The notes beneath the pieces were generated by a model. That model did not search any database. It was given only the letters and a program-made list of their open reading frames with translations, and was not told the origin of the DNA. Below, piece after piece: positions 15,295-39,307 of a DNA stretch of 64,000 bases (the stretch's first letter is position 1; the number at the start of each line of letters is the position of its first letter). The position numbers and the translations under genes were made by a program. Where the stretch lies: assembly GCA_040754375.1 (NCBI GenBank), contig JBFMCT010000011.1:1384-65383 (forward strand), in the 5' to 3' direction. The DNA is from Actinomycetota bacterium (GTDB taxonomy: Bacteria; Actinomycetota; Acidimicrobiia; Acidimicrobiales; AC-14).

Positions 15295-16467
15295 TCATCT
15301 CCGCCGGTGGCCGGCGGGGTGGGATGTGACGGAGCCGTAGATCTCGAGGTGGCGGCGGGCGGTGGCCTCCCAGGTGAAGCGGGAGGCCACGCGGTGGCCG
15401 GCTCGGACGAGGCGGTGGCGTAGCTGGGCGTCGGTGGCGACGGCCCGCATGGCTCGGGCCAGGGCGCTCGGGTCGGCCGGGGGGACCAGCAGGGCGTCCT
15501 TCCCGTCGGTCAGGTACTCCCGGAAGACCGCTATGTCGGTGGCCACGACGGGCAGGCCCGCGCTCAATGCTTCGAGCACGACCAGGCCCCATCCCTCGTT
15601 CAGCGAGGGGAACACGAAAGCGTCGGCCACGCCGTACCAGTCGCCCAGCTCGTCGTCGTCCACGGTGCCCAGGAGCACCACGTCTCGGCCGAGCTCGAGG
15701 CCGAGGGGCCCGAGGCTGGCGAGGGCCGCCTCGCGGTAGGCCCGGTAGTCCTGGAAGGAGTGCCCGCCGACGATGGCCAGGACCGGCCTCGGGTCGAGGG
15801 CGTCGAGGGCGGCCAGGGCGGCCAGCAGGTGGGCACTGCCCTTGCGGGGCTCGATGCCGCCCACGGTGAGGAACACGAACCGGCCGTCGCCCGCCCCGAT
15901 CCGGTGGCGCAGGGCGGCCCGTCGACCGGCAGGGACGGGCGGGAACGGCCGGCCGTCGGCCCCGTTGTAGACGACCTCGGCGTCCACGCCGTAGCCGTCG
16001 CGCAGGAGCGTGCGCCAGTGCTCGCTCACCACCAAGGCCCGGTCGGGCTCGAGGATGGCCTGGTGCTGGCAGTCGATCAGCGCCTGGGTGGTGAAGTCGT
16101 CGACGTGATGGACGGTACGCACCACCGGCACCCCGGCACCGCCGTCGCGTACCCGGGCGGCGGCCCGCGCCGAGATGCAGTCCTGGGCGTGGAAGAGGTC
16201 GAAGTCGTCGGCGACGACCGAGAGGCCGGCAGCCAGGGAGGCCACCGACGCGAAGACCCGTTCCTCCAGGCTGGCCCCCTCGGCGGGCGGGCCCACGATC
16301 TTGACCGGGACAGCGACGGGCCTGAAGAACCCCGCACTGTCGCCCAGGGCGAGGACGGTCACGTCGGCCCCCAGGCGGTGGAGGGCCTCAGCCAGCCACA
16401 GGGTGTGGGCCACACCGCCGCGGGGCTTCACCGAGTACGTGACGAGGCCGATCCGCGGCCCGGTCAC
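15295..16467 (-). CDS. GT4-family glycosyltransferase (MSMEG_0565-like by context)
   Basis: GTG at 16467 overlaps the fdrA-like stop (GTGA). 390 aa with the GT-B C-terminal pattern FVFPSLNEGWGLVVLEALSAGLPVV. The listed ORF 15295..16905 has a spurious N-terminal extension. Confidence 0.8.
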   Translation of the reverse strand: MTGPRIGLVTYSVKPRGGVAHTLWLAEALHRLGADVTVLALGDSAGFFRPVAVPVKIVGPPAEGASLEERVFASVASLAAGLSVVADDFDLFHAQDCISARAAARVRDGGAGVPVVRTVHHVDDFTTQALIDCQHQAILEPDRALVVSEHWRTLLRDGYGVDAEVVYNGADGRPFPPVPAGRRAALRHRIGAGDGRFVFLTVGGIEPRKGSAHLLAALAALDALDPRPVLAIVGGHSFQDYRAYREAALASLGPLGLELGRDVVLLGTVDDDELGDWYGVADAFVFPSLNEGWGLVVLEALSAGLPVVATDIAVFREYLTDGKDALLVPPADPSALARAMRAVATDAQLRHRLVRAGHRVASRFTWEATARRHLEIYGSVTSHPAGHRRR

Positions 16468-18011
16468 AATGCAGCGGTGACGAGCTGAGGCTGGCGGGTG
16501 GCGATGGCGGCCGCGGCCAAGGAGGCCCGGGCGGCGGTGGGCGTGACCGTGCAGCCCGCCTCGGTAAGTTGGGCCCGCTGGCGCTCGAAGCCCTGAGGGT
16601 CGCCGTCGGTCCCCAGCACGTAGGCCACCACGCTCGGCCCGCCGCCGGCCATGATCTCCGCGCACGCAGGGGCCAGTTCGCCCGCCGGGTCGGGGTGGGA
16701 CCCGTACCCCAGCACGACGTCGATCAGGACCACGGCCACCTCCTCGTCCTGGCCCGCCTCCCTGATGAGCTCGAGGCGGGCCGCGGGGTCGATCATGGGA
16801 TGGGGGCGGCCCTTGGTGTACTCCTCCTCGCCCAGGTCGAGACAGACGTGGCTGCCGGTTGGCGCGGGCACCCGGTAGGCCTTGTCCAGCGGTGTGTTGG
16901 ACCAAACCGGGCCGATGTACCGCGACAGGACCGCCAGCGACTCGTAGCAGAGCGTCCCGCCCGAGAACAGGCCCCGCACGAGGGACCGGCCCGGGCCGAG
17001 GCGGGCGGCGGACCTCTCGACCGCCTCAGCCAGACCGGAGATCAGGTCGGGCACGTCGATGCCCAACAGGGTCAGGGCCCGCACCACCCCCTCCTCCAGC
17101 GTGCCTACGACGGCGACGCCCTCGGGTTGCCCGAACGCCGGTCCCAAACCGATGAGCGAGGCCACCAGCGGCGTGCCCCCGGCCAGGGCCACGACGTCGC
17201 GGGCGACGTGCTCGGAGGGCGGCTTCGACACCAGGAGGATGGCATCGGTGCCCGGGTCCTTGGCCATGGCCGACACGGCCAGCTTGGCCATGCGCCCGCC
17301 CACGGCATCGGTGAGGTCGCGGCCGCCGAGCCCGACTACCGAGGACACCCCCGCGCCCCAGCGGTCCAGCAGGCTCATGGCCTCCTGGGCGCCGGTGCCC
17401 GCGGCCGCGACCACACCGACCCGGCCCGGCTTGACCACGTTGGCAAAGCCCAGCCCTACGCCCCCGAGCAAGGCGGTGCCCGCCCCGGGGCCCATCACCA
17501 ACAGTCCCAGGTCGGTGGCCCGGTCCTTGAGCGCCACCTCGTCGGCCACCGGCACGTTGTCGCTGAACAGCAGCACGTGGAGGCCGGCAGAGAGGGCCTT
17601 GTGGGCTTCGAGGGCGGCGTAGTCTCCGGGAACGGACACCACGGCGACGTTCGTCGCGGCCTGGGCGGCCAGCGCCTCGCCGAGGGTACGGGGCCGGCGC
17701 TCGGCTTCCCGGTCGTGCTCCGCACCCCGGGGCTCGGCGAACAGCCTTTCCTCGGCGGCCGCCACGGCCGCGCCGGCACTGTCATCGTCGGTCGCCTCGA
17801 CGGCCACGAACAGATCGTCGGCCGAGACGCCGTCGAGGCCACCGGGCGAGAAGCCCCGCTCGACCAGGGTGGCGACGTTGGCCGGGGTGCCCATGGCCGC
17901 GGCCGCCCAGTCGACCCCCTCGACGTCGAGCATGGCCCGGGTGCCGGCCATCTGGAGCACGGAGTCGAGGTAGGTGCCCCCGAAGACCTTGACCAACCGG
18001 CTGGCCGTCAT
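16464..18011 (-). CDS. fdrA: FdrA-family protein (succinyl-CoA-synthetase-alpha-like CoA-ligase fold)
   Basis: 515 aa. Starts ..FGGTYLDSVLQM.. and continues NVAVVSVPGDYAALEAHKAL..GLHVLLFSDNVP..GLLVMGPGAGT..VGVVAAAGTGAQE, as in FdrA. ATG overlaps the carbamate kinase stop (ATGA at 18008-18011). Confidence 0.85.
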   Translation of the reverse strand: MTASRLVKVFGGTYLDSVLQMAGTRAMLDVEGVDWAAAAMGTPANVATLVERGFSPGGLDGVSADDLFVAVEATDDDSAGAAVAAAEERLFAEPRGAEHDREAERRPRTLGEALAAQAATNVAVVSVPGDYAALEAHKALSAGLHVLLFSDNVPVADEVALKDRATDLGLLVMGPGAGTALLGGVGLGFANVVKPGRVGVVAAAGTGAQEAMSLLDRWGAGVSSVVGLGGRDLTDAVGGRMAKLAVSAMAKDPGTDAILLVSKPPSEHVARDVVALAGGTPLVASLIGLGPAFGQPEGVAVVGTLEEGVVRALTLLGIDVPDLISGLAEAVERSAARLGPGRSLVRGLFSGGTLCYESLAVLSRYIGPVWSNTPLDKAYRVPAPTGSHVCLDLGEEEYTKGRPHPMIDPAARLELIREAGQDEEVAVVLIDVVLGYGSHPDPAGELAPACAEIMAGGGPSVVAYVLGTDGDPQGFERQRAQLTEAGCTVTPTAARASLAAAAIATRQPQLVTAAL

Positions 18012-18988
18012 GTCGACGCCACCAGCGGCTTGACCCGGACGATGTGGGTACCGCGCGGCCCCTCGATGTCCGAGACCGTTCCTTGGAGCGAGGCGTACAC
18101 CAGTTGGGGGGTGGTGATGACGGCTTCCTCACCGCCCCGGCGCAGGAACCGCACGGCGGCCCGGACCTTGGGGGCCATGCTGCCCTCGGGGAACTCGCCC
18201 CTCTCCAGCCACTGCTCGGCCTCGTCCACCGCCATCTCGTGGATGGCCCTCTGGTCGGGCTGGCCGTAGTGGAGCAGCACCGTCTCCACCCCCGTGACCA
18301 GCACCAGCGCCTCGGCGGCCAGGGAGGTGGCCAGGCGCTGGGCCGCGTAGTCCTTGTCGATCACGGCGTCGATGCCGCCGTAGCCGTCGTGGTAGCGCAC
18401 CACCGGCACCCCTCCCCCGCCGGCCGCCACCACCACCTGGCCCTGGTTGAGCAGGGCTCGGATGGCGTCGGTCTCGAGGATGGCGACGGGCTCGGGCGAG
18501 GGGACTACGCGCCGGTAACCACGGTCGGCGTCCTTGTTGACCACCCATCCCCGTTCGGCGGCCATCGTCTCGGCCTGCTCCTTGGTCAGGAAGGGGCCGA
18601 TGAACTTCGTCGGGTTCTCGAAGGCCGGGTCGTCGGGGTTCACGGCCACGTGGGTGACGATGGCTACCGCCCCCCGCATCCACGACGCGTCGGCCACCCG
18701 GCGAAGTGCCAGGCAGATGAGGCTGCCCAGCTGGCCTTCGGTCATGGCCCCCAGAGAGAACAGGGGCTGGGCCGGCACCAGCTTCTGGCCCTCCTCCTGC
18801 TGGATGGCGAGGTTGCCGACCTGGGGGCCGTTGCCGTGGACGAGGACCACGCGCCACCCGCTGCGCATGAGCGAGGACACGGCCTTGGCCATGGCCGTGG
18901 CGTTGGCCTCCAGCTCCTGGTGCGTTCCCTGCTGGCTCTCCCGGGTGAGGGCGTTGCCGCCCAGCGCCACCACGGCCGTCTTCGGCAT
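18008..18988 (-). CDS. arcC: carbamate kinase
   Basis: 326 aa. VVALGGNAL, VLVHGNGPQVGNL, RRVVPSPEP and VVAAGGGGVP motifs are typical of carbamate kinase. Confidence 0.9.
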   Translation of the reverse strand: MPKTAVVALGGNALTRESQQGTHQELEANATAMAKAVSSLMRSGWRVVLVHGNGPQVGNLAIQQEEGQKLVPAQPLFSLGAMTEGQLGSLICLALRRVADASWMRGAVAIVTHVAVNPDDPAFENPTKFIGPFLTKEQAETMAAERGWVVNKDADRGYRRVVPSPEPVAILETDAIRALLNQGQVVVAAGGGGVPVVRYHDGYGGIDAVIDKDYAAQRLATSLAAEALVLVTGVETVLLHYGQPDQRAIHEMAVDEAEQWLERGEFPEGSMAPKVRAAVRFLRRGGEEAVITTPQLVYASLQGTVSDIEGPRGTHIVRVKPLVAST

Positions 18989-19002
18989 CGGCCCTCCTCT
19001 GA

Positions 19003-19047
19003 TGGACGAGAGCGGGTGTAGAGGATGAGAAATTGTCGTCCATTATA
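19003..19047 (-). promoter_or_regulatory. candidate arcC-operon promoter: TATAAT box plus inverted repeat
   Basis: Minus-strand TATAAT at 19047-19042. Inverted repeat TGGACGA (19003-19009) / TCGTCCA (19036-19042). RBS agaggaggg before the ATG at 18988. AT-rich island in GC-rich DNA. Confidence 0.3.
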
Positions 19048-19064
19048 GTGTAGGGTAGGCGCCG

Positions 19065-19418
19065 ATGAGCGGCCCGCCGGCCCCGCCGGTCCCACCCAGC
19101 CCGTTCTCTGACCCCGAGGTGCCGGGCGAGGTCCTCTACCGGTGGTTCCAGGCCGAGGAGCGCCTCTACCCTGTGGCCATGGTGATGCCCGAGCGTTACC
19201 AGGAGGCCGTGCGCCTGGTCGGGCGGCTGGCCGAGCAGCTCCGGGCGTCCTGCCCTGACATCCCCAGCCTCGTCACGGCCGATGCCGAGGCCCGGGACGC
19301 AGCGCAACGGCTCGCCTCCCACGACCCGGCCATGGCCGAGGACCTCGACCTGTCCCTGGTGGCCGGCGCGGCATGCTCGATCCGCTACCGGGAGCTGGCC
19401 GCTCAGCGCCGGGGCTGA
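19065..19418 (+). CDS. hypothetical protein (117 aa), first gene of the radical-SAM/GNAT operon
   Basis: ORF with an ATG start that ends 3 nt before the next start. No motif recognised. Confidence 0.5.
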   Translation: MSGPPAPPVPPSPFSDPEVPGEVLYRWFQAEERLYPVAMVMPERYQEAVRLVGRLAEQLRASCPDIPSLVTADAEARDAAQRLASHDPAMAEDLDLSLVAGAACSIRYRELAAQRRG

Positions 19419-19421
19419 ACC

Positions 19422-20516
19422 GTGGACCTGGGCCACCTCATCACCGACCTGCAGAGCCGGGGCCTCCGTGTGGAGGCGCAGATGGAGGCCCGTCACGGCG
19501 GCGCCGGGCCCAGCGACTCGGGGATGCTGTGGATCGAAGGCGTGGCCGTGACCGTCCCGACCGACAACGCCCTCGCCCACGCCTCGCCTTATGTCCTGCG
19601 CCCCGAGGACGAGGGCTACGGCATCTACCGCGACGGTGAACGGCTGGCCGCCGCCACGGCCACGCCCCGGCCCCGCTACTACGACCTCTCGACGGCCGAC
19701 GGGACCCCGTACTGGAAGATCGCCCTGCTTCACCTCGACTCGCTGGCCAGCACCGTCTTGCAGACCTGCGCCTACTGGGGGAACTCCGACCAGTGCCAGT
19801 TCTGCGGTATCGGCCTGTCGTTGGACGGCCGGCGCACCATCGCCAAGAAGCGCCCCGAGCAGCTGGCCGAGGTGGCGGTGGCGGCCAAGGAGCTCGACGG
19901 CGCGGTCGACGCCACCCTGACCACCGGCAGCACCGCGGGGGCCGACAAGGGAGCGCTGTACGTGGCCACCTGCGGCGCGGCCGTCAAGGAGGCGGCCGGG
20001 CTACCGGTCGAGGTGCAGTTCGAGCCGCCCGACGACCTCGACGTGATCGACCGCGTCCACGACCTGGGGATCGACTCGGTGGGCATCCACGTCGAGTCGT
20101 TCGACCCCGTGGTGCTGGCCCGGGTGGCCCCGGCCAAGGCCCGCACCGGCATCGAGGGGTACTTCGCGGCCTGGGAGCGGGCGGTCAGCCTGTTCGGCGA
20201 GGGCCAGGTGTCGACCTATGTGATCCTCGGCATGGGGGAGGACGCCCAGCTCACCGTGGAGGGGTGCCGGCGGGCCATCGACGCGGGCGTCTACCCCTTC
20301 GTGGTCCCGTTGCGGCCCATCGCCGGCAGCCTGATGGGGGACTTCATGCCCCCCTCGGCCGAGTACACCGAGAGCATCTACCGGCGGGTGGTGCCCTACC
20401 TGCGGGAGCGGGGCCTGGACACCAAAGGCGTGGCTGCCGGGTGCGCCCGCTGCCAGGCGTGCTCGGCCATGGCCACCGTCGAGAAGCTCCTCACGATCAG
20501 CCCGTCGCGGTCTTGA
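19422..20516 (+). CDS. radical-SAM-like protein (MSMEG_0568/Sll0785-like by context)
   Basis: 364 aa. TIM-barrel-like pattern with a Cys triad C-x8-C-x2-C (CAYWGNSDQCQFC) and a C-terminal CARCQAC cluster. Followed directly by the GNAT gene, as in Nit1C clusters. Confidence 0.7.
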   Translation: MDLGHLITDLQSRGLRVEAQMEARHGGAGPSDSGMLWIEGVAVTVPTDNALAHASPYVLRPEDEGYGIYRDGERLAAATATPRPRYYDLSTADGTPYWKIALLHLDSLASTVLQTCAYWGNSDQCQFCGIGLSLDGRRTIAKKRPEQLAEVAVAAKELDGAVDATLTTGSTAGADKGALYVATCGAAVKEAAGLPVEVQFEPPDDLDVIDRVHDLGIDSVGIHVESFDPVVLARVAPAKARTGIEGYFAAWERAVSLFGEGQVSTYVILGMGEDAQLTVEGCRRAIDAGVYPFVVPLRPIAGSLMGDFMPPSAEYTESIYRRVVPYLRERGLDTKGVAAGCARCQACSAMATVEKLLTISPSRS

Positions 20517-20992
20517 GCACCGCCGCCGACGTCCGCAGCCGCCGTTCGTGCCGGATCGCCACCCGGCCCGACGAACTGGCCGTCCACTACGGGATCCGCC
20601 ACCGCGTGTTCGTGGAAGAACAGGGCCTGTTCGACGGCTCCGACATCGACAGTTGGGACGCGGTGGCGGGCGCCGTCCACGTCCTCGGCCTGTGGGACGA
20701 CGAGCCCGTCGGCGCCGTGCGCCTGTTCCCTCTCGACCCGTCCACCGACTTGTGGCAGGGCGACCGCCTGGCCGTGCTGGCCAGGTACCGGGTCCGCAAC
20801 CTGGGGATGCCCCTGGTCAAGTTCGCGGTGGCCACCGCCGCGGCCCGGGGTGGGCGGGAGATGGTGGCCCACGTCCAGCTACCGAACGTCGCCTTCTTCG
20901 AGCGCATCGGCTGGCACACCTACGGCGCGGTCGAGACCTACGTCGGGGTCGAGCACCAGCCCATGGCCATCGACCTCAGCCCGTACCGCTGA
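20513..20992 (+). CDS. GNAT N-acetyltransferase (MSMEG_0567/Sll0786-like by context)
   Basis: TTG at 20513 overlaps the previous stop (TTGA). 159 aa with HYGIRHRVFVEEQG.., VGAVRL.., GMPLVKFAVATAAARG, FFERIGW. Confidence 0.75.
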   Translation: MSTAADVRSRRSCRIATRPDELAVHYGIRHRVFVEEQGLFDGSDIDSWDAVAGAVHVLGLWDDEPVGAVRLFPLDPSTDLWQGDRLAVLARYRVRNLGMPLVKFAVATAAARGGREMVAHVQLPNVAFFERIGWHTYGAVETYVGVEHQPMAIDLSPYR

Positions 20993-21950
20993 GGCCCGTC
21001 ACCGGCTCGGCCGCGAGGTCGACCACGACGGCCGGACGGGCCCCGGCCGCGGTCACAGCCACCACGCCCGTGTCGTCGAGCGTCCCGATGACGGCCACCT
21101 CTATGGCCCGGTCGCGGAACGGCCGGGCGCATTCCTCCTCCCGCCCGGGTGGGACGCACAGCAGGAAGCCGTAGCAGGGGAACGCCAGGAGCCATGTGAC
21201 CAGGTCGGCCCCGGGCGGCCGCGGGACGGCCTCGAGGTCGATGGTGACTCCCAGGCCCTGGCACTCGACCAGCATGGCCGTGGAGCCGACGATGCCGGCC
21301 ATGCTCACGTCCTTGGCGGCCACGCACGCCCCTCGGTCGGCCACGTCGGCCAGGAGCCGGACGTCGGCCGCCAGCCGGTCGCCCCGCTCGGCGAAGGAGG
21401 CGAAGAAGGGGAAGTCTTCGCGCATGCGGCCCTCGGTAACGCACGCCAGCATCAGGCGTTGGCCGGCGGCCGCGTTGCGGACCGAGAGGACGCGGTTGGC
21501 CTCCCGTACCCGGCCCAACCCGAAAGCCGACACGGAGGCCGGCCCGTCGCGGACCGTGAGGTGCCCGCCCACCACGGGGACGTCGTAGAGCACCGAGGCG
21601 TGGCGCATGCCCTCCAGCACGGAGCGGGCCACGGGCTCGGGGGCCACCACCGTGTCCACGATGGCCAGCGGGACGGCGCCCATGGCCGCCAGGTCGTTGA
21701 CGTTGGCCAGCACGGCGGCGGCGCCCGCGCCGAACGGGTCGCGCGCCACGAATGCAGGCGCCATGGCCTCGCCGCCCACGGTGAGGACCAGGCCGCCGAC
21801 CTCCACCACCGCGCCGTCGTCGCCCGGCCCGTGGGCCCAGTCGGTGGCACCCAGGACCTCGGTGACGAGGCCGATGCCGGCCTTGTCCCGCAGGCCCGGA
21901 TGGGCCCGCAGGCGGGCGGCCACCGCCTCCACGTCCCATCGACCGGGCAT
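20976..21950 (-). CDS. AIR-synthase-related (PurM-superfamily) protein, Sll0787-like
   Basis: 324 aa. DDGAVV, AAAVLANVNDLAAMGAVPLAIVD, VPVVGGH and AKDVSMAGIVGS motifs of the PurM/ThiL/HypE fold. Its 3' end overlaps the convergent GNAT gene by 17 nt. Confidence 0.8.
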   Translation of the reverse strand: MPGRWDVEAVAARLRAHPGLRDKAGIGLVTEVLGATDWAHGPGDDGAVVEVGGLVLTVGGEAMAPAFVARDPFGAGAAAVLANVNDLAAMGAVPLAIVDTVVAPEPVARSVLEGMRHASVLYDVPVVGGHLTVRDGPASVSAFGLGRVREANRVLSVRNAAAGQRLMLACVTEGRMREDFPFFASFAERGDRLAADVRLLADVADRGACVAAKDVSMAGIVGSTAMLVECQGLGVTIDLEAVPRPPGADLVTWLLAFPCYGFLLCVPPGREEECARPFRDRAIEVAVIGTLDDTGVVAVTAAGARPAVVVDLAAEPVTGLSGTG

Positions 21951-21959
21951 CCCTCATCC

Positions 21960-21988
21960 TTGCACTAAAGTAAACGTCTCTCTACCAT
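21960..21988 (+). promoter_or_regulatory. candidate sigma70-type promoter of the comA-like operon
   Basis: TTGCAC (21960-65), 17-nt spacer, TACCAT (21983-88), then aagaggaga ATG (21998). This would give a very short leader. Confidence 0.3.
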
Positions 21989-21997
21989 AAGAGGAGA

Positions 21998-28895: not shown

Positions 28896-28905
28896 TGAGG
28901 CGCTA

Positions 28906-29718: not shown

Positions 29719-29912
29719 CGACCGACCTGACCGCGACCCTGGACCTGGTGGAGATGGCCGTCACCTGGGCCGAGCTCGACTACAGCCACGAGGACGTCAT
29801 CCCGCCCCGGCGCTGGCTGGAGTTCGCGGCCGAGCACGAGTGGGAAGACCCCGACGTGGCCGAACGGCTCTTCAGCGCGGCCGCCGAGATCGCCCTCAGG
29901 CGGGCGGGTTGA
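29715..29912 (+). CDS. possible small acidic protein (65 aa)
   Basis: GTG at 29715 overlaps the previous stop (GTGA). ..VEMAVTWAELDYSHEDVIPPRRWLEFAAEHEWEDPDVAERLF... Its 3' end overlaps the convergent OsmC-like gene by 17 nt. Confidence 0.3.
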   Translation: MTTDLTATLDLVEMAVTWAELDYSHEDVIPPRRWLEFAAEHEWEDPDVAERLFSAAAEIALRRAG

Positions 29913-30348
29913 CGACGACCTCGACCTCGTTCAGCGTACGAAGGGTGTTGGACACGTAACACACGGCCTTGGCCCGCTCAACCAGGCGGTCCAGCTCCTC
30001 CCGCTCGTGGCTGGAGGTGACCTCGACCCGGAGATGGGAGAACTTGGGGCCGTCGTAGGCGCCCACGACCAGCACGGCCAGGTCGGCCAGCTCGATGCCG
30101 CGCTTGCGCCCGACGTGGGCCACGGCGAGGGCGAAGCACGACCCCAGCGAGGCCAGGAAGAGGTCGGTCGGCTGCGGCCCGGTGCCCTCCCCTCCGGCGT
30201 GCTCCGGCTCGTCCACCCGTACCTCGAACTCACCGGCCGTGACCCGGCAGCGGTAGCCGCCCTCCCATACGGCGTATACCGAGCGCGAGCTCGAGGGCGG
30301 ACGCTCAGCCGTGCTCGTGGCCGTGCCCGTGCTCGTGCCCACTGGCAT
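29896..30348 (-). CDS. OsmC/Ohr-family peroxiredoxin-like protein; start uncertain
   Basis: ..GGEGTGPQPTDLFLASLGSCFALAVA.. and ..AKAVCYVSNTL.. carry the two conserved Cys of the OsmC fold. The first canonical in-frame start after the upstream stop region is ATG 30348, which would overlap the His-tail coding region by 44 nt. Confidence 0.7.
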   Translation of the reverse strand: MPVGTSTGTATSTAERPPSSSRSVYAVWEGGYRCRVTAGEFEVRVDEPEHAGGEGTGPQPTDLFLASLGSCFALAVAHVGRKRGIELADLAVLVVGAYDGPKFSHLRVEVTSSHEREELDRLVERAKAVCYVSNTLRTLNEVEVVVNPPA

Positions 30349-30709
30349 GATCGTGACCGTGCCCGCCGGCATGATCGTGACCGGCCGGGCGCTCGGCCAG
30401 CTCACCGGCCCGGGCCTCCAGCTCACCGGCGCCCACGACGCCCCTGCCGGCCAACACCCGCTCCAGGGCGGTGAGCCAGCAGCGGTAGTAGCTCCAGCAC
30501 TCGTCGCCCTCGCGCTCCCAACCGCCGACGGCGGCGATGAGCTCACGACGGAAGTCCTCCCAGTCGATGGTCCCGGCGTCGTGGAGGGCCATGGCCAGCC
30601 CGAACGCCCGGCTCTCCCACGGGGCCGCGAAGACCAGCTCGCCGTTGCTCCGGGGGGGCGCCCCCGGCCCCTCGATGTCCAGCACCGCGCCCGGCGACGG
30701 GACAGTCAT
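30305..30709 (-). CDS. nitrile hydratase accessory (activator) protein with C-terminal His-rich tail
   Basis: ATG at 30709 overlaps the alpha stop (ATGA). 134 aa. [18 protein letters not shown].. resembles the beta-subunit-like NHase activators. Tail is [24 protein letters not shown]. Confidence 0.75.
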
Positions 30710-31305
30710 GGAGCCGCCACCTTGGCCACCCCGACCATGGCGTCGCGCGTCACCAGCGAGGCCAGGTCTTCCTCGCTCATCCCCTCGGTGCCCGCCGGCC
30801 GTTCGGGCAGCACCATGTAGCGCACCTCCGAACTGCTGTCCCATACCCGCAGCTCGATGTCGTCGCCCAACTCCAGCCCCATCTCGGCCAGCAGGGCCCG
30901 GGGGTCGCGCACCATCCGCGACCGGTAGGCGGGGTCCTTGTACCAGCCCGGGGGCAGGCCCAGCACCGGCCACGGGTAACAGGAGCACAGCGTGCAGACG
31001 ACGACGTTGTGCACCGACGGCGTGTTCTCCAGTACGACGATGTGCTCGCCCTGGGGGCCCTTGAAGCCCAGTTCGGCGATCGAACCCGTGCCGTCCTCCA
31101 GCAGGCGGGCCTTGTAGTCAGGGTCGGCCCAGGCGTGGGCCACGACCTTGGCGCCGTTCATGGGGCCGACGTCCTGCTCGTACATCTTGATGAACTTGTC
31201 CATGAGGGAGGGGTCGACGATCCCCCGCTCCACCAGGATCGATTCGAGAGCCTCCGTCCGCAGCTCGATGGGCAGGCGTTCGGCGGTGGTGTCCGACGTG
31301 GTCAC
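30706..31305 (-). CDS. nthA: nitrile hydratase alpha subunit, cobalt type
   Basis: GTG at 31305 overlaps the beta stop (GTGA). Metal-site motif [14 protein letters not shown] (Thr/Tyr variant = Co type; the Fe type is CSLCSCT). Confidence 0.9.
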
Positions 31306-31967
31306 GGCGCGGCCTCCAGATAGGACTCGTACAGGTCGAACCTCAGGGTGAACTTCTCGGCGTCCTCGCCCCACAGCTCAGTCGAGCCGAACTCGACGTT
31401 GTAGACGTGCTGGGGGTTCTCCCCCAGGAAGTGGGCGTTGGTGTCGGGCAGCACCTGGGCGGGCAGGACGAGGCGCACGACACCCGCCCGCCCGCGCACG
31501 TAGCGGGCCAGCCGGGTGTGGCCCGTCGGGTGGATGTCGCGCGCCCGCACCCGGTCCCCCACCGCGAACTTGGGCGGGTCGTCGATCTGGCGGATCGACC
31601 CGGCCGCCGTGGGCTGGTAGTCGGGCTTGTCGGGCTCGGGGACGGGCGGCTCCTCCACGTCCTCGCCCCGCAGCTTGCGGGCCCGGGCGTCGACCGCCCC
31701 GGGGGCGATGATCGACGATCCCACCAGCAGGTTCTCGGTCATCTTGAGCCAGCGGCCGTAGTAGCCGTAGGCCAGGTAGTCGATGGGGTGCTGGCGGTTC
31801 AGGCCGTGGCGGAACGTGTCGAGGTTGGTGCCCGAGATCCGCATCGACAGCAGCGCCATGGCGAACGCCCGCTTCTCCCACTCCTCATGGAAAGGCGGGT
31901 CGTCGGGCGGGTCGAGGCTGACGCGGCCGAAACCCTGCAGCCCGCCCATGTCGGCGACGGTGTCCAA
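31302..31967 (-). CDS. nthB: nitrile hydratase beta subunit
   Basis: 221 aa. MGGLQGFG..., [11 protein letters not shown], ..YYGRWL.., ..[12 protein letters not shown]... Gene order beta-alpha-accessory. Confidence 0.9.
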
Positions 31968-32051
31968 CGTCGCACCTCCTTCAAACGAAAGGGAGAGACG
32001 CCCCCCGACCGTGGCGGCCGGGGGGCGCTCCCGGTGATCGGCGACGAGTGG

Positions 32052-32540
32052 TCAGACGGTCCAGGTGTTGATCTGGAACGCCCCGGCCCGCCAGGCGGTC
32101 AGCGCCGAGTCGAGCACGTCCAGCGGGTGGAAGGCCTTCACGCCATCGATGAGGTCGTCCTCCCGGAAGCCGTAGAGCGCGCCCATGGCGAAGCGGCAGG
32201 CGTAGACGTTCGCTCCCTCCTTGAGGAGGGTCTTGATCTGGTTGTTGATGGCCATGTGCCCGGGGAAGGCCTCCTGGCCGACAGCCGGGAAGCCCCGGGT
32301 GCCTGACGCCAGCAGGACGCCCGGCCCGTAGAGGATGATGTTGACCTCGAACCCCTTGCGCACCAGCCGGGTCGAGGTCAGCAGGTTCACCAGCGCGACC
32401 GAACCCTCGTAGGGGACGGTGTGTATGAAGACGAAGGCCCGCTCGCCGGGGTTGGCCTTGATGTCTTCGAACAGCTTCTCGTCCGTGTCGAAAAGGACCT
32501 CGCCGTCGGCGGGGCGTTCCTGGTTGACTGTCTTCGGCAT
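32052..32540 (-). CDS. DsrE-like ~160-aa protein (MSMEG_0572/Sll0783-like by size and context)
   Basis: 162 aa. ATG directly abuts the upstream stop (TAGATG) with RBS gaggagag. The pattern AFVFIHTVPYEG...VNIILYGPGV...ANVYACRFAMGA suggests a DsrE/DsrF-type fold. Confidence 0.6.
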   Translation of the reverse strand: MPKTVNQERPADGEVLFDTDEKLFEDIKANPGERAFVFIHTVPYEGSVALVNLLTSTRLVRKGFEVNIILYGPGVLLASGTRGFPAVGQEAFPGHMAINNQIKTLLKEGANVYACRFAMGALYGFREDDLIDGVKAFHPLDVLDSALTAWRAGAFQINTWTV

Positions 32541-32855
32541 CTACTCTCCTCGTGTCTCGGTAAGGGTCTGCGGTGGGGTGGTGACTCGGCCGTCGGCGCT
32601 GACGGCCGGGGTTCCTCGTAGCGGGGGATGCGCCCAGTTCTGACGATGGCTGCCCGGCATCGCCCGGATCGTGAAGTGCCGCAGTCCCCAGGGCAGCCGG
32701 CGGTAGACGGGCGCGAAGACCTGTAGCCAGAACTTCTCCCGCACGCCCTTGGGCCGGGGCGGGCCGGCCCGCCCGTACTTGTCGGCCATCCGCCGTTGGG
32801 CGTCGACGAGCAGGTAGTGCTCGGAGTTCTGGCGGAGCCAGTGGGCGAAGGCCAC
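32541..32855 (-). CDS. small conserved-looking protein (104 aa; MSMEG_0570-like by size and position)
   Basis: GTG at 32855, 2 nt after the oxidoreductase stop. ..HWLRQNSEHYLLVDAQRRMADKYG...KFWLQVFAPVYRRLPWGLRHFTIRAMPGSHRQNW... The rest of ORF 32541..33899 is antisense shadow. Confidence 0.5.
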   Translation of the reverse strand: MAFAHWLRQNSEHYLLVDAQRRMADKYGRAGPPRPKGVREKFWLQVFAPVYRRLPWGLRHFTIRAMPGSHRQNWAHPPLRGTPAVSADGRVTTPPQTLTETRGE

Positions 32856-32857
32856 CG

Positions 32858-34195
32858 CTACCTGCCCAGCGAGGCCAGGCCGTTCTGGGCGGCCAGCGCG
32901 ATGGGCTCGTTGAGAGCCCCGATGGGTGGGGAGTAGACGTTCTCCATGGTGGCGAGGTCGTCGAGGGTGATCCCCGTACGGACGGCCATGGCCAGGAAGT
33001 CGGCCCGCTCCTTGATGCCCTCGCCCCCGACGAGCTGGGCGCCGATGAGGCGGAGCGTCCCCGGCTCGGCCAGCAGCTTGACTTTGATCTTCTTCATGTC
33101 CGGGTAGTAGCGGGCCCGGGAGATGCCCTGGGCCACGCCCATGACGAACGGGATCCCCAGGGCCGTAGCCAGCGTCTCGCCGAACGACACGCCACCGATC
33201 ATCCACTTGCCGGCCACCATCCCCCAGGGGACGTACACGGGCTGGTACGCCCGCTTGCCCCCGGCCGCGTTGGTGCCCGCCACCTTGCCCTGGGCGTAGG
33301 CGTGGCTGCCGGACAGGCCCTGGATGGGGACGTCGCTCACGCCGTGGGGCAGCTCGACACAATCGCCGGCCGCGTACACGTCGGGCGCCGAGGTGGTCAT
33401 GCGCTCGTCCACGATGATCCCGCCGGTGGAACCGACCTTGATGCCCGCTCCCGCCGCCATGCGGGCATTGGGCTGCTTCTTGGTGCACACGACGACCACG
33501 TCGGCCGGCAGTTCCCCGGCGTCGGTGCGCACCGCCCGCACGTGCCCTTGTCCGTCGCCCACGAACTCGCGCAGGGCCGTGTTCCAGTGCATCTTCACGC
33601 CCATCTCCGCCCAGGACTCCTCCACCGGAGCGGCGATGTCGGGGTCGGCGGCCTCGGCCAGGGCCCAGGGGTGAGGGTCGATCACGTGGGTCTCGATGCC
33701 GCGGTGGGCCAGGGCCGTGACCATCTCCAAGCCGAGGGGCGACGCCTCCACCACCACCGCCACCTTGACGGTGTCGAGCACCTTGTCCCACTCCATGGCG
33801 CTGCGGATGTTCTTTACGTAGTAGAGGCCCCCCAGCTCGGTGCCGGGGACACCCGGGTCGGCGTAGTCGAAGCCGGTACCGAGGATCAGCCGGTCCCATT
33901 GCTGGGTGCCCTCACCCTCGATGGTGACGGTCCGGGCGTCGACGTCGAACGACGAGACACGCGTCTCATAGTGGATGTCGATGCCCGCCTCCTGGTAGGA
34001 CTGCTTGGTGGCCAGGAACAGCCGGTCGAAGTCGGGGATCTCCTTGCCGTGGACATAGGGGATGCCGCACGGGCTGTACGCGGCGTCCTCGTACTCGGTG
34101 TACACCACGACTTCGGCGCTACGGTCCGTCTGCTTGGCGGCGCCCGCGGCACCGATCCCCGCTGCCCCACCACCGATCACGACGATCCTGGCCAC
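32858..34195 (-). CDS. FAD-dependent pyridine nucleotide-disulfide oxidoreductase (CoA-disulfide reductase / NADH oxidase-like, single active Cys)
   Basis: GTG at 34195 preceded by aggagacgggggg. 445 aa. IVVIGGGAAGIGAA, YSPCGIPY, VAVVVEASPLGLE, AAGDC, and a C-terminal dimerisation domain. Confidence 0.85.
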   Translation of the reverse strand: MARIVVIGGGAAGIGAAGAAKQTDRSAEVVVYTEYEDAAYSPCGIPYVHGKEIPDFDRLFLATKQSYQEAGIDIHYETRVSSFDVDARTVTIEGEGTQQWDRLILGTGFDYADPGVPGTELGGLYYVKNIRSAMEWDKVLDTVKVAVVVEASPLGLEMVTALAHRGIETHVIDPHPWALAEAADPDIAAPVEESWAEMGVKMHWNTALREFVGDGQGHVRAVRTDAGELPADVVVVCTKKQPNARMAAGAGIKVGSTGGIIVDERMTTSAPDVYAAGDCVELPHGVSDVPIQGLSGSHAYAQGKVAGTNAAGGKRAYQPVYVPWGMVAGKWMIGGVSFGETLATALGIPFVMGVAQGISRARYYPDMKKIKVKLLAEPGTLRLIGAQLVGGEGIKERADFLAMAVRTGITLDDLATMENVYSPPIGALNEPIALAAQNGLASLGR

Positions 34196-34280
34196 CTGCC
34201 CCCCGTCTCCTACCGCATGGACGATCCGGCTCTGACGTTTACTATACTGGACGTCGTTGGTAATGGCGTCAAGGAGGCCT

Positions 34281-34925
34281 ATGACTGATCTCGGCGATCC
34301 GGCGCCCCGTACCGACGGGCGGGCGGGTGTGGACGGCATCGTGAGCGGCATCGGGTTGCGCCTGCGGGAGTTGCGCCTCCACCACAGCCTCTCGCTCCAG
34401 CAGTTGGCCGAACGGGCGGGCGTGTCGGCCGCCGCCATCCACAAGATCGAGCGCAACGGCATGGTCCCCACGATCACCACGCTGCTGAAGCTGGCCGACG
34501 CGTTCGACCGCCCGGTGGCCTACTTCCTCGACGACGAGAAGGCCGAGGCCGGGCCGGTGGCGTTCATCCCGGCCGACGAGCGGCCGACCGTGTTCAACTC
34601 CCGCCCGGGCGTCGAGGTCCGCGCCATCTCCGGCTCGTACCCGAAGTTCTTCCTGGCCTCGACGGTGGTCACCGTCCAGCCCGGTGCCGGCAGCGGCCCG
34701 TCACGCGCCGTCGACCAGCGGGAGGAGCTCGTACTGGTGCTCGAGGGCACTCTCCGCTTCGAGGTCGACGGCCGGGAGTACCTGCTCGAGCCAGGGGACG
34801 CCCTGCACCTGCGGACCGACGGCCCGCATCGTTGGGTGAACCCGGGAGACGGCCCGGCCCAGGCGGCCTGGACCACCCTCAAGCCGTTCGACGGCTGCCC
34901 GTTCGGATCGGGGGCGGTGAGGTAG
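34281..34925 (+). CDS. XRE-family HTH + cupin-domain transcriptional regulator
   Basis: ATG at 34281 with a perfect aaggagg RBS (the track start 34257 is an upstream TTG). HTH LSLQQLAERAGVSAAAIHKIERNG. C-terminal cupin (..ELVLVLEGTLRFEVDG..L.PGDALH). Confidence 0.8.
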   Translation: MTDLGDPAPRTDGRAGVDGIVSGIGLRLRELRLHHSLSLQQLAERAGVSAAAIHKIERNGMVPTITTLLKLADAFDRPVAYFLDDEKAEAGPVAFIPADERPTVFNSRPGVEVRAISGSYPKFFLASTVVTVQPGAGSGPSRAVDQREELVLVLEGTLRFEVDGREYLLEPGDALHLRTDGPHRWVNPGDGPAQAAWTTLKPFDGCPFGSGAVR

Positions 34926-34928
34926 GCC

Positions 34929-35897
34929 ATGGCGCTGACGACCGTGCCGGTCGCCCCGTGGATCGAGGGGTTCCAGCCCTTCGACCACACCTCGGTGCGG
35001 CGTACCGAAGTCGTGCGTCCCGCCATGTGCGGGCACAACTCGTTGCTGGTCGGCCAGATCGGCGACTGGACCTGGGACGCCGTCGCCCAGGTGTGCGGCA
35101 CCGACGTACTGCGGGCCGCCAGCCGCACCGGCGAGCCCGCCTACCTGTCGTTCTATTACTACCGGGTGCGTAGCAGCCCGTCGTTCCACCTGCGGACGCC
35201 GACGTTCGGCGACCGCCTGCACGTGACCTCGCAGCTCTTCGACTTCGGCAGCGAGTCCGTGCTGACCCTGCACCGCATCAGCCTCCTGGCCGGCGTAGGT
35301 GGCTTCGGGCCCGACGAGTTCTACTCGGGCACCGACAAGGACTGCCTCTATGTCGAGAACCTCAACCGGTGGATCTCCCGGCCCGACGACGGGTCCAACC
35401 GCCGTCTGGTCCCGGCCTCGCCGCCGGACTTCCGCCACCACCACCTGCCCCCGCTGCCCGAGGCCTACTCGCCCCGCCACGCCTGCCACCGCGCTCGCAC
35501 CCGGCTGACGTTCCTCGACGGCGACGATCTCGACCGGCTGGAGCCCGCTGGCCCGCCCGTGGAGCTCGAGTACCGCGTCGACCCCAGCCGGGACCTCAAT
35601 GGCGTGGGCCTGCTGTACTTCGCGGCCTACTTCTCGATCGTCGACTGGGGCCTGCTCCAGCTCTGGCGGGGCCTGGGCCGCAATAGCCGCTCGTTCCTCG
35701 AACGAGTGGTGGTGGACCAGCAACTCTGCTATCTCGGGAACGCTGATGCCGACAGTGCTGTGAGGGTGAGCGTCCAGCGGCGGGAAGCGGTGACCGGTGA
35801 CCGCGGCCACGAGGTCGTCGACGTGGTGCTACGAGACCGTGCCGACGGGCGGCTACTGGCCGTTTGCACCCTGCGGCTACTGGCGAACCCTCGCTAA
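34929..35897 (+). CDS. double hot-dog-fold protein (acyl-ACP thioesterase / LnmK-like)
   Basis: 322 aa, two similar halves, with ..NGVGLLYFAAYFSIVD.. reminiscent of acyl-ACP thioesterase-type hot-dog proteins. Family assignment is by eye only. Confidence 0.45.
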   Translation: MALTTVPVAPWIEGFQPFDHTSVRRTEVVRPAMCGHNSLLVGQIGDWTWDAVAQVCGTDVLRAASRTGEPAYLSFYYYRVRSSPSFHLRTPTFGDRLHVTSQLFDFGSESVLTLHRISLLAGVGGFGPDEFYSGTDKDCLYVENLNRWISRPDDGSNRRLVPASPPDFRHHHLPPLPEAYSPRHACHRARTRLTFLDGDDLDRLEPAGPPVELEYRVDPSRDLNGVGLLYFAAYFSIVDWGLLQLWRGLGRNSRSFLERVVVDQQLCYLGNADADSAVRVSVQRREAVTGDRGHEVVDVVLRDRADGRLLAVCTLRLLANPR

Positions 35898-39231: not shown

Positions 39232-39307
39232 TGGCAGTCCCAACGGGGTTCGAACCCGTGTCTCAACCTTGAGAGGGTTGTGTCCTAGGCCACTAGACGA
39301 TGGGACC
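39232..39307 (-). tRNA. tRNA-Glu (anticodon CTC), CCA encoded
   Basis: Reverse complement GGTCCCATCGTCTAGTGGCCTAGGACACAACCCTCTCAAGGTTGAGACACGGGTTCGAACCCCGTTGGGACTGCCA folds as a cloverleaf. Anticodon loop is CUCUCAA, T-loop TTCGAAC, and pair 1-72 is G:U. Confidence 0.9.

Follow-up and report, generated by a model that had tools for sequence, protein, structure and literature searches.

Three described systems come close to the gene cluster reported here. The first is the bacterial biosynthesis of coenzyme M (CoM). In Xanthobacter autotrophicus Py2 it starts with the addition of sulfite to phosphoenolpyruvate by XcbB, after which XcbC eliminates phosphate, XcbD adds cysteine, XcbE performs a cleavage and a decarboxylation, and XcbA, a [2Fe-2S] reductase, catalyses the reduction that is the last step of CoM formation (PMC9457059). 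As late as 2024, methanogens and alkene-utilising bacteria were stated to be the only organisms known to carry the CoM biosynthesis genes, whose presence was taken as evidence of epoxide metabolism (PMC11507031). The second system is the seven-gene Nit1C cluster (Podar et al. 2005), represented by sll0783-0787 in Synechocystis, nitBCDEFGH in Pseudomonas and the MSMEG_0565-0572 'gpr' operon in Mycobacterium smegmatis. The Pseudomonas Nit1C nitrilase is required for cyanide assimilation (PMC11049912), and the M. smegmatis operon is induced more than 500-fold under nitrogen starvation in a GlnR-dependent manner, confers a GlnR-dependent resistance to peroxide and raises NADPH/NADP (PMC6039565). 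The third is the oxamate carbamoyltransferase (OXTCase) AllFGH of Escherichia coli, which interconverts oxalurate plus phosphate and oxamate plus carbamoyl phosphate, from which a carbamate kinase then gives ATP, NH3 and CO2; the OXTCase reaction is freely reversible in vitro (PMC11326118). The same AllFGH/kinase module lies beside the biuret/triuret genes of nitrifiers, where a catabolic role was proposed from the genomic context (PMC12625717). This report describes how homologs of these three systems, together with a nitrile hydratase (NHase), are combined at positions 15295-35897 of a 64-kb stretch of DNA, called the window hereafter, from contig JBFMCT010000011.1 of an Actinomycetota bacterium.

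The combination is not an accident of a single genome. A scan with the XcbC-like protein of the window over one genome per species returned 301 relatives, of which the best 80 (64-83% identity) were analysed; genes were mapped on the 52 loci of at least 19 kb, with counts limited by the 10-kb flanks. These best 80 of 301 belong mostly to Actinomycetota, namely metagenome-assembled genomes (MAGs) of Acidimicrobiia, Pseudonocardia, Actinomycetospora, Jiangellaceae, Nocardioides agariphilus, Blastococcus jejuensis and Leekyejoonella, and the labels outside this phylum are limited to two MAGs of Dormiibacterota and one of Bacillota. The blocks detailed below co-occur in most of the 80 loci (counts in Table 1) and also on a plasmid of the alphaproteobacterial methanotroph Methylocystis iwaonis; cultured carriers exist in Pseudonocardia, Actinomycetospora, Blastococcus, N. 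agariphilus and M. iwaonis. Gene order and orientation vary in at least five ways between lineages. The lasting associations are xcbC-allG (allG directly after xcbC in 64 of the 80 loci), FdrA with carbamate kinase (adjacent in 45 loci), glycosyltransferase with FdrA, radical SAM with GNAT, and flavoprotein-u104-MSMEG_0572. Genes retained in spite of a reshuffled order are the classical signature of functional linkage, and the cluster very probably constitutes one conserved functional unit. A preliminary description of this sequence had proposed an undescribed pathway spread over several operons, to be abandoned if its blocks turned out to be neighbors in this genome only; the recurrent co-occurrence shows the opposite, and the proposal survives in a strengthened form. 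Its statement that no described pathway uses this combination stands for the whole assembly, of which no description was found in the open-access papers searched. It does not stand for the CoM and AllFGH/AllK blocks, which had already been described.

All five families of the bacterial CoM pathway are present in one operon of the window, where each model is the best match in Pfam and NCBIfam searches. These searches, read against the NCBIfam curated cut-offs, covered ~38 window proteins (all genes from 12845 to 44433 and ten further out). Judged by its sequence, the group comA-xcbA-xcbD-xcbE-xcbC is the complete described five-enzyme set for bacterial CoM biosynthesis, and CoM is the probable, if far from assured, product of the operon. 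The same five families form the xcbABCDE sets of X. autotrophicus Py2, Nocardioides sp. JS614 and Mycolicibacterium chubuense NBB4, with full-length identities of 36-53% to the Py2 and JS614 proteins. The values are 42% for XcbB, 42% for XcbA (Xaut_5070), 43% for XcbD and 36% for XcbC relative to Py2 (Xaut_5067-5070), a copy which has no XcbE counterpart, and 48% for ComA, 44% for XcbA, 53% for XcbD, 43% for XcbE and 48% for XcbC relative to JS614. The gene order is identical in the window and in both JS614 copies, the deviant superfamily loop RAS(V/K)(L/I)MPQKRNP of XcbC is common to the window and Xanthobacter enzymes, and the cysteines of XcbA, conserved among 64 homologues, follow the pattern of CoM producers. 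In addition, a single-cysteine flavoprotein of the CoA disulfide reductase (CoADR) type adjoins the xcb genes in the window, JS614 and Py2 alike. The preliminary description had taken this operon for an unknown C-N-lyase operon. Its ComA, two Lyase_1 proteins and pyridoxal phosphate (PLP) enzyme of ACC-deaminase fold were correctly recognized; they belong to the XcbA-E pathway of CoM, and the protein at 22780-23670, then considered unplaceable, is XcbA/DUF7714 (PF24830, NF052538).

The genes that normally accompany this pathway in bacteria are lacking. Searches with JS614 queries, including EtnE and EtnC, detected no epoxyalkane:CoM transferase, alkene monooxygenase, CoA-transferase or acetate-CoA-ligase-family protein in the window or in the 80 loci, and these sequences, unlike the alkene-type CoM loci, contain no hydroxyalkyl-CoM dehydrogenase genes. 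The operon of the window also differs from known xcb operons by running on into allG-allH. In a plasmid collection, XcbA homologues were found only in three classical alkene oxidisers (42-45% identity) and in M. iwaonis (47%). In a large protein collection that includes metagenomes, the best 120 XcbA clusters share 60-99% identity with the window protein and are thus nearer to this type than to the alkene type (42-45%). A complete xcb operon without alkene or epoxide genes recurs in this manner among the best 80 of 301 XcbC-bearing genomes. If CoM is really made there, its known bacterial biology would be the minority case and the xcb genes could no longer serve as a marker of alkene metabolism; the cluster points to an undescribed use of CoM outside methane and alkene metabolism.

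The second block comprises FdrA, DUF1116, DUF2877 and a carbamate kinase, a quartet already delineated in the preliminary description, and its family matches identify it as the described oxamate carbamoyltransferase AllFGH with AllK. Indeed, in Pfam DUF1116 and DUF2877 now bear the names of its AllG and AllH subunits and both models match, while the domains HMA_AllF_N and Ligase_CoA are matched in the FdrA of a 99%-identical metagenome contig. The four families of the E. coli allFGHK genes (Kim & Kim 2022, 2024) are therefore all found in the window, and the expected chemistry would be an ATP-coupled exchange of carbamoyl and phosphate groups. The arrangement of the genes, however, is unlike that of E. 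coli, where a single operon lies beside allECD. In the window, two operons on opposite strands are separated by ~10 kb: allF and the carbamate kinase gene are grouped with a glycosyltransferase, whereas allG and allH stand behind xcbC. The boundary between AllF and AllG is displaced as well. The window FdrA ends at model position 497, and the first ~50 residues of AllG (27492-27650) correspond to the last ~50 of E. coli-type FdrA (model positions 508-554; PDB 3dmy residues 428-476), so that the end of the E. coli AllF is encoded at the start of AllG. This shifted split point, in genes lying ~10 kb apart, argues that AllF and AllG still form one enzyme. No allantoin-pathway enzyme (allB/C/D/E) was detected among the ~38 window proteins; together with the split genes, this makes allantoin-derived oxalurate an unlikely substrate. 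The conservation of AllH stops near residue 217 and its last ~55 residues are not conserved; in this tail (29550-29718, ~55 codons past the conserved part) the GC content of third codon positions (GC3) drops and the start of the u96 gene is overlapped in another frame. It may represent a read-through tail, a mis-set stop or an assembly frameshift.

The third block resembles Nit1C, with which the window has the DsrE-like, radical SAM and GNAT genes and, as a borderline case, the AIR-synthase-like gene in common, as well as the MSMEG_0565 glycosyltransferase found in M. smegmatis and Burkholderia Nit1C. As in Nit1C, a flavoprotein and an open reading frame (ORF) of ~100 codons adjoin the DsrE-like gene, and a nitrile-hydrolysing enzyme belongs to the set. 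Of the seven genes that define Nit1C according to Podar et al., three are present, one is borderline and three (nitrilase, ORF6 and ORF7) have no representative of the defining family. Seven proteins had been assigned to this set beforehand: GT0565, rSAM0568, GNAT0567 and MSMEG_0572 pass their cut-offs and the AIR-synthase-like protein is supported just below its own, but the flavoprotein and the ~100-aa protein belong to other families. The flavoprotein is of the CoADR/NADH oxidase (Nox) type. Membership of the MSMEG_0569 family was rejected because TIGR04046 falls outside its best 25 NCBIfam matches, which CoADR leads, and only the GxGxxG dinucleotide-binding motif aligns with an annotated MSMEG_0569 protein. 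It carries the motif AAYSPCGIPY, its relatives in the PDB are Nox, CoADR and CoA-persulfide reductase, and its active-site Cys43 is invariant in the xcb-adjacent flavoproteins of JS614 (34% identity) and Py2 (28%). A common single-cysteine type beside xcb genes is consistent with a CoM-related disulfide reductase, and the protein is a candidate CoM-disulfide (or persulfide) reductase. The ~100-aa protein, u104, was likewise rejected as a member of the MSMEG_0570 family, given that it has no NCBIfam match and that BLASTP against an annotated protein of this family gave no alignment at E <= 100. The protein has 18 invariant residues and 173 homologues, each of them annotated as hypothetical, and is always encoded between the flavoprotein and the MSMEG_0572-family protein. 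An AlphaFold2 model based on 48 homologues shows a helical hairpin at pLDDT 66.5, too weak for a fold search.

Some features of the other Nit1C-type proteins bear on their possible roles. The next-best family matches of the GT4 glycosyltransferase are MshA and BshA. For the radical SAM protein, NF045502 ('variant rSAM') is a further match and the LipS2 lipoyl synthase model a weak one, and the Nit1C radical SAM enzymes were classed by Podar et al. with biotin-synthase-related enzymes. The AIR-synthase-like protein matches methanogenesis marker 2 (167 bits), has PurL, SelD, ThiL and HypE as PDB relatives, and is 32-37% identical to its Acinetobacter and Methylocystis counterparts. The cysteine of the YACRF motif is conserved among homologues of the MSMEG_0572-family protein. 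Unlike Nit1C, the cluster contains ~12 extra conserved genes (xcbA-E, allF/G/H, carbamate kinase, OsmC, XRE-cupin, u96 and u117), none of which is found with the canonical seven-gene Nit1C of an Acinetobacter plasmid. Homologues of u117 precede the radical SAM gene in 27 loci, and u117 was also called independently on the 99%-identical contig; homologues of u96, with a conserved AHH..WAELDY pattern, occur in 37 loci. The cluster in this way ties the Nit1C core, the recently de-orphaned AllFGH carbamoyltransferase and NHase into a single testable unit.

The nitrilase of Nit1C is replaced. As noted in the preliminary description, no nitrilase is encoded in the window (tblastn with two Nit6803 nitrilase queries, best E = 0.4), and the same queries detected none in the 80 related loci. 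A Co-type NHase is present instead, or an Amidohydro_2 protein in other lineages. The beta, alpha and accessory proteins of the NHase were correctly proposed, since all three score above their cut-offs and the alpha subunit has the VCTLCSC motif. This site, the beta-alpha-accessory order and the His-rich accessory protein are those of the Co-NHase operons of Pseudomonas putida NRRL-18668 and Pseudonocardia thermophila; in contrast to these operons, there is no amidase partner and the genes follow the DsrE-like and flavoprotein genes of the Nit1C-type set. An identification as thiocyanate hydrolase (SCNase) was rejected, the scores being 250-312 bits for Co-NHases of the PDB versus 163 bits for SCNase gamma. 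The cluster-associated beta subunits carry YYGRW in 28 of 29 sequences (residue 43) and MR(V/I)SG in 26 of 26 (residues 71-72); in the P. putida Co-NHase these places are taken by YYEHW and a gap. With additional arginines beside residues that line the pocket, the cluster enzymes might be suited to an anionic nitrile. NHase is found in 31 and Amidohydro_2 in 10 of the 80 loci, never together, and both directly after the MSMEG_0572 gene.

The Methylocystis plasmid provides a third solution to this step. It carries a Nit6803 nitrilase along with AIR-synthase-like, GNAT, radical SAM and OsmC genes and comA-xcbA-xcbD-xcbE-xcbC. Its flavoprotein is 63%, u104 48%, MSMEG_0572-family protein 62%, AllG 56%, GT0565 56%, FdrA 55% and XRE-cupin protein 46% identical to those of the window, and the FdrA-GT0565 coupling occurs as in the window. 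The presence of a nitrilase, an NHase or an Amidohydro_2 protein in the same set suggests that a C-N hydrolysing step is integral to the system and appears to be swappable. Two DJ-1/PfpI genes lie near the Methylocystis cluster (L082:10796-12701). The OsmC/Ohr-type thiol peroxidase encoded behind the NHase genes of the window is found in 60 of the 80 loci, and both of its catalytic cysteines are conserved among 61 homologues.

The promoter regions of the cluster also have sequences in common. The motif GACGTTTACTTTA lies in the divergent spacer between the AIR-synthase-like gene and comA, and GACGTTTACTWTA has just two exact copies in the 64 kb, one of them at this position (21966..21978). The exact 13-mer GACGTTTACT(A/T)TA likewise occurs twice in the window, in this spacer and in the divergent spacer between the flavoprotein and XRE-cupin genes, which contains the imperfect palindrome GACGTTTACTATACTGGACGTC. 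The chance of a second exact copy is ~7e-5, by our own estimate from the base composition; with up to 3 mismatches the 13-mer has 5 matches versus 1.0 expected, a number reached in 0 of 100 shuffles. A degenerate copy is located in the spacer between the carbamate kinase and u117 genes, and related palindromes are found in the orthologous spacers of five Acidimicrobiia loci (L002, L005, L010, L016 and L017). The shared motif and these orthologous palindromes suggest a common control of the cluster promoters, plausibly through binding of the XRE-cupin protein, whose gene occurs in 34 loci. The GlnR consensus gTnAc-n6-GaAAc is not convincingly matched by the shared motif, and no claim is made for a GlnR box in the spacers. 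A search of the spacers against Rfam (E <= 1) detected no riboswitch or other RNA; the only two matches are tRNAs located outside the cluster.

The function of the cluster can be approached from the expected reactions. By homology, comA-xcbA-xcbD-xcbE-xcbC would make CoM (2-mercaptoethanesulfonate) from phosphoenolpyruvate, sulfite and cysteine, the Co-type NHase would convert a nitrile into a carboxamide, AllF, AllG and AllH together would swap a carbamoyl group between an acceptor and phosphate, and the carbamate kinase would interconvert carbamoyl phosphate plus ADP and NH3, CO2 and ATP. The broad chemistry anticipated in the preliminary description (nitrile hydration, carbamoyl-phosphate/ATP coupling, and sulfite or thiol handling) fits these assignments. 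We infer that the chemical link between the modules could be a heteroatom-bound cyano group, the sulfur of CoM being the simplest carrier, through the series X-C≡N -> X-CO-NH2 -> carbamoyl phosphate. Cyanolysis of CoM disulfide by cyanide would give the thiocyanate ester CoM-S-CN, which NHase would hydrate to S-carbamoyl-CoM; the succinyl-CoA-synthetase-like AllFGH would then use phosphate to release carbamoyl phosphate and CoM, and the kinase would produce NH3, CO2 and ATP. The flavoprotein may keep CoM reduced or recycle the cofactor, and OsmC may spend thiol reducing power on peroxides. The net result would be an energy-conserving assimilation of cyano- or cyanate-type nitrogen, with XRE-cupin as local switch and probably under nitrogen limitation as in the homologous Nit1C/gpr clusters. 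The synthesis of the cyanide ligands of [NiFe]-hydrogenases by HypF/HypE serves as a working analogy only. It involves carbamoyl phosphate, the transfer of its carbamoyl group to a thiol, and a PurM-superfamily enzyme interconverting S-carboxamide and S-cyano groups; the window likewise has a carbamoyl-phosphate enzyme, a carbamoyltransferase, a thiol and a PurM-superfamily protein. HypF, however, is absent from the window, the proposed flux would be reversed, and HypE is but a distant relative of the AIR-synthase-like protein (25-26 bits), which is devoid of a C-terminal cysteine. No role is assigned in the proposed scheme to the Nit1C-type core, to GT4 or to the three small conserved proteins.

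On these grounds, the locus is read as an extended, nitrilase-less Nit1C-type system built around CoM and acting in CoM-dependent nitrogen scavenging, with a probability of about 0.3. The thiocyanate-ester/S-carbamoyl-CoM route in particular is considered improbable in this exact form. The same doubt applies to CoM as a thiol carrier of cyano or carbamoyl groups, which would be a third and widespread physiological role, apart from methanogenesis and alkene oxidation, in many soil and freshwater Actinomycetota and some methanotrophs. Should the carrier route be true, it would offer a first biochemical entry point to Nit1C, a puzzle for 20 years. Several observations weigh against nitrogen scavenging through CoM. 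The NHase is an ordinary Co-type enzyme, far nearer to aliphatic NHases than to thiocyanate hydrolase, and six loci with the MSMEG_0572 gene in view have neither NHase nor Amidohydro_2 nearby. In the Methylocystis version no carbamate kinase or AllH is encoded within ~45 kb, though FdrA and AllG are kept beside the nitrilase; this enzyme would bypass the carbamoyl intermediate, and AllF and AllG therefore cannot serve the NHase product alone. XcbA alone among the Xcb set passes its cut-off, the scores of XcbC, XcbD, XcbE and ComA lying below theirs. Such shortfalls say little, however: JS614, a genuine CoM user with comparable scores, also falls under these 'exception' cut-offs for three of its proteins (XcbC 332, XcbE 313, ComA 205). 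Finally, GT4, GNAT, radical SAM, AIR-synthase-like, SARP and LnmK-like proteins and the neighboring LarBCE of some loci look biosynthetic rather than catabolic.

The main alternative follows from this last point and is tentatively entertained: the cluster may make, and keep reduced, a CoM-derived or CoM-dependent small molecule such as a low-molecular-weight thiol or antioxidant, a cofactor or a specialised metabolite. The builders would be GT4 (MshA/BshA-like), GNAT (MshD-like), radical SAM (BioB/LipA-like sulfur insertion), the DsrE-like protein as sulfur carrier and the AIR-synthase-like protein as ATP-dependent activator. The carbamate kinase and AllFGH would run in the carbamoylating direction, in keeping with the free reversibility of OXTCase in vitro, the NHase or nitrilase would catalyse an on-pathway step from nitrile to amide or acid, and the flavoprotein and OsmC would use the product against peroxide. 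The family relationships of GT4 and of the radical SAM protein favor such a pathway, as do the conserved OsmC and CoADR-type reductase, the SARP regulator and LnmK-like protein, the LarB/C/E genes abutting the cluster in ~17 loci, and the FdrA-GT0565 translational coupling conserved across phyla. The peroxide resistance and raised NADPH/NADP conferred by the homologous M. smegmatis operon would be explained too, and a product of this kind would be attractive under nitrogen starvation because CoM contains no nitrogen. However, CoM consists of a thiol and a sulfonate only, which makes its own glycosylation or acylation chemically awkward, and in 20 years no product has become known for any Nit1C-type cluster. 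That three unrelated C-N hydrolases stand in for one another would be more usual for a catabolic or salvage step, and the documented physiological roles of AllFGH and carbamate kinase are all catabolic.

The reading based on CoM must also be compared with one in which the Xcb-like enzymes stop short of it. Phosphosulfolactate or sulfoacrylate, formed by ComA and XcbC, would then be an electrophilic sulfonate building block for AllG, AllH, AllF and others, a different sulfonate being made or degraded. Three Pseudonocardia loci (L051, L052 and L062, among them P. hydrocarbonoxydans NBRC 14498) are instructive in this respect: comA is directly followed by xcbC-allG-allH, xcbA, xcbD and xcbE being deleted (L051:9171-11449; L062:7177-9838, where a 49-aa xcbA remnant is left) with the rest of the cluster intact. 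The sulfonate required may accordingly be derived from sulfoacrylate and not be CoM, a further argument against the CoM-based reading, unless these organisms draw CoM from a second locus, as they could. The position of allG directly behind xcbC, with a 4-nt overlap in the window, agrees with such a building block, and the similarity of XcbC tracks the type of cluster and not taxonomy, with 60% identity to Methylocystis versus 48% to the actinobacterial JS614; among the five proteins, XcbE has diverged most. Against this stand the retention of all five xcb genes in 47-49 of the 52 long loci and the agreement of operon order and XcbA cysteine pattern with those of CoM producers, and a sulfonate other than CoM is judged rather unlikely. 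Far less probable still is a mere juxtaposition, in a nitrogen/sulfur 'island', of independent modules without a shared pathway, in which operons for CoM and for NHase would lie next to an allFGHK-like set and the degenerate remains of a Nit1C. Each block does have a described stand-alone counterpart, and at least five transcription units on both strands are involved. Yet the blocks stay together although their order and orientation have been extensively rearranged in different classes of Actinomycetota, and they do so on an alphaproteobacterial plasmid too; AllF and AllG, parts of one enzyme, are encoded in different operons and coupled to genes of other blocks (GT0565 and xcbC). The operator-like motif is common to promoter spacers, and a search for an att-like repeat of the adjacent tRNA gave nothing.

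The genes of the window were called from GC3, in view of its high G+C content (~73%, and even over the 64 kb). From the glycosyltransferase gene through xcbE, the genes called independently on the 99%-identical contig agree with them in identity and size, and the start of ComA, giving 261 aa, was taken from that contig. The five gene groups of the preliminary description are thereby confirmed at the positions it gave, and so are its short overlaps, most junctions being linked by overlaps of 1-16 nt (Table 1). The overlap amounts to 4 nt at both junctions of unit A, 4 nt for radical SAM/GNAT, 4 nt for comA/xcbA, 16 nt for xcbA/xcbD, 10 nt for xcbD/xcbE, 4 nt for xcbE/xcbC and 4 nt for NHase beta/alpha. 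The MSMEG_0572-family and u104 genes abut with zero gap; the spacing is 2 nt for u104/flavoprotein and 3 nt for both u117/radical SAM and XRE-cupin/hot-dog.

Table 1. Genes and operator-like motifs of the cluster, by position in the window. NCBIfam scores are followed by the curated cut-off; letters designate transcription units; the last column gives the number of loci with the gene among the 52 mapped.
Feature	Position	Strand	Unit	Family placement and remarks	Loci
GT4 glycosyltransferase, MSMEG_0565 family	15295-16467	minus	A (last gene)	Glycos_transf_1/Glyco_transf_4; TIGR04047 371 vs 260	24
FdrA/AllF-type subunit, oxamate-carbamoyltransferase-like enzyme	16464-18011	minus	A	Ligase_CoA (Pfam); NF004760 400 vs 433, model positions 9-497 of 555	44
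Carbamate kinase (AllK/ArcC type)	18008-18988	minus	A	AA_kinase; NF009007 302 vs 266; TIGR00746 342 vs 358	37
u117, conserved 117-aa protein	19065-19418	plus	B	no Pfam/NCBIfam match; translationally coupled to radical SAM gene
Radical SAM, MSMEG_0568 family (Nit1C NitD type)	19422-20516	plus	B	TIGR04043 388 vs 304	31
GNAT, MSMEG_0567/Sll0786 family (NitE type)	20513-20992	plus	B	TIGR04045 110 vs 68	32
AIR-synthase-like (PurM superfamily), sll0787-like (NitF type)	20976-21950	minus	alone	AIRS + AIRS_C; TIGR04049 best, 257 vs 321	41
Operator-like AT-rich motif	21966-21978	minus		AIR-synthase-like/comA divergent spacer
ComA/XcbB phosphosulfolactate synthase	21998-22783	plus	C (first gene)	PF02679 255 bits; TIGR03849 237 vs 280	49
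XcbA family protein (DUF7714)	22780-23670	plus	C	PF24830 300 bits; NF052538 337 vs 150	47
XcbD-like aspartase/fumarase-superfamily enzyme (3-sulfopropionylcysteine synthase type)	23655-25004	plus	C	NF052536 587 vs 600	48
XcbE-like PLP enzyme (D-cysteine desulfhydrase/ACC-deaminase fold)	24995-25996	plus	C	PF00291; NF052537 best match, 233 vs 450	47
XcbC-like aspartase/fumarase-superfamily enzyme (phosphosulfolactate -> sulfoacrylate by phosphate elimination)	25993-27495	plus	C	NF052535 best match, 434 vs 575
AllG (DUF1116) subunit	27492-28895	plus	C	PF06545 221 bits; PDB 3clq 267 bits; translationally coupled to xcbC	46
AllH (DUF2877) subunit	~28906-29718	plus	C	PF11392 59.5 vs 25; start uncertain
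u96, conserved ~96-aa acidic protein	29622-29912	plus	C	no family match; other-frame overlap with AllH tail
OsmC/Ohr-type thiol peroxidase	29896-30426	minus	D	PF02566 69 bits; true start probably near 30290	43
NHase accessory protein, His-rich tail	30305-30712	minus	D	TIGR03889 69 vs 46	25 (NHase)
Co-type NHase alpha subunit	30706-31305	minus	D	TIGR01323 304 vs 250; VCTLCSC motif	25 (NHase)
NHase beta subunit	31302-31967	minus	D	TIGR03888 189 vs 152; closest PDB match Co-type beta subunit	25 (NHase)
DsrE-like MSMEG_0572/Sll0783 family protein (NitB type)	32052-32540	minus	D	TIGR04044 207 vs 110	35
u104, conserved 104-aa protein	32541-32855	minus	D	no Pfam/NCBIfam match	35
Flavoprotein disulfide reductase, single-cysteine, CoADR/NADH oxidase type	32858-34195	minus	D	Pyr_redox_2/Pyr_redox_dim; top NCBIfam CoADR 247 bits	35
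Operator-like imperfect palindrome	34234-34255	plus		flavoprotein/XRE-cupin divergent spacer
XRE-HTH + cupin regulator (PuuR-like architecture)	34329-34925	plus	E	HTH_3 + Cupin_2	28
LnmK-family double hot-dog protein, peripheral/optional	34929-35897	plus	E	PF18238 233 bits; TIGR04098 282 vs 100
SARP (BTAD)-AAA-TPR protein, possible cluster regulator	35877-39065	minus		convergent to unit E

The genes at the right border, XRE-cupin, SARP-AAA-TPR and the LnmK-type double hot dog, were identified as previously proposed (Pfam/NCBIfam). The methyltransferase, BNR and NuoF-like genes that flank the cluster never recur, so that the cluster is bounded by GT4 (left) and XRE-cupin (right). The SARP protein is a possible cluster regulator; a full-length homologue, 45% identical, is embedded in the cluster of five Pseudonocardia-type loci. 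Among the 80 loci the LnmK-like gene is found only in L002, the closest relative, and a distant double hot-dog relative of the Pnap_2097 family belongs to the Methylocystis cluster. The match to the LnmK model is at the domain level only, with no acyl carrier protein or polyketide synthase partner nearby, and no function is deduced from it. Beyond the SARP gene lie a tRNA-Glu(CTC) at 39232-39307 and a tRNA-Gln(CTG) at 39332-39406. Integration of the cluster as an island at these tRNAs was considered and rejected, given the absence of any direct repeat of a tRNA end longer than 13 nt and the even GC content of the window. The surroundings (41593-44433 and 49850-61719) encode GltX, ProS, an IlvE-type aminotransferase, LeuB, a LeuC-type aconitase-family protein and LeuA; such housekeeping genes indicate a conserved chromosomal region with no obvious mobile element.

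Other genes are associated with the cluster in particular lineages. The larE-larB-larC genes of nickel-pincer cofactor biosynthesis, absent from the window, adjoin the OsmC end in ~17 Pseudonocardiaceae-type loci (L037, L042-L048, L051, L055, L056, L062, L063, L069-L072, L078 and L079; e.g. L043:1464-4090), next to a heavy-metal P-type ATPase in L051 and L062. Their vicinity was searched for a LarA-type enzyme that would use the cofactor; the neighboring unassigned ORFs tested proved to encode an AMP-binding enzyme, a bestrophin-like protein, DoxX and a P-type ATPase, none of them LarA-like. A DJ-1/PfpI-family protein, also absent from the window, is encoded between allH/u96 and OsmC in eight Acidimicrobiia-type loci (L002:14375-15030, L004, L005, L008, L009, L014, L054 and L058). 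Two apparent fusions were seen once each, flavoprotein with u104 (L056:11602-13395) and FdrA with carbamate kinase (L058:18433-20955); they could reflect a physical coupling if real, or could instead be frameshift artefacts of MAGs. Lastly, a large TPR-CHAT protein is encoded at 44467-47025, ~8 kb downstream of the cluster, and is followed by a pair of sigma-70-family genes (47333-48396). In the Acidimicrobiia loci L003, L006 and L007 (e.g. L006:14184-16817), the cluster is followed after a few kb by a gene for a TPR-CHAT protein with a comparable domain architecture.

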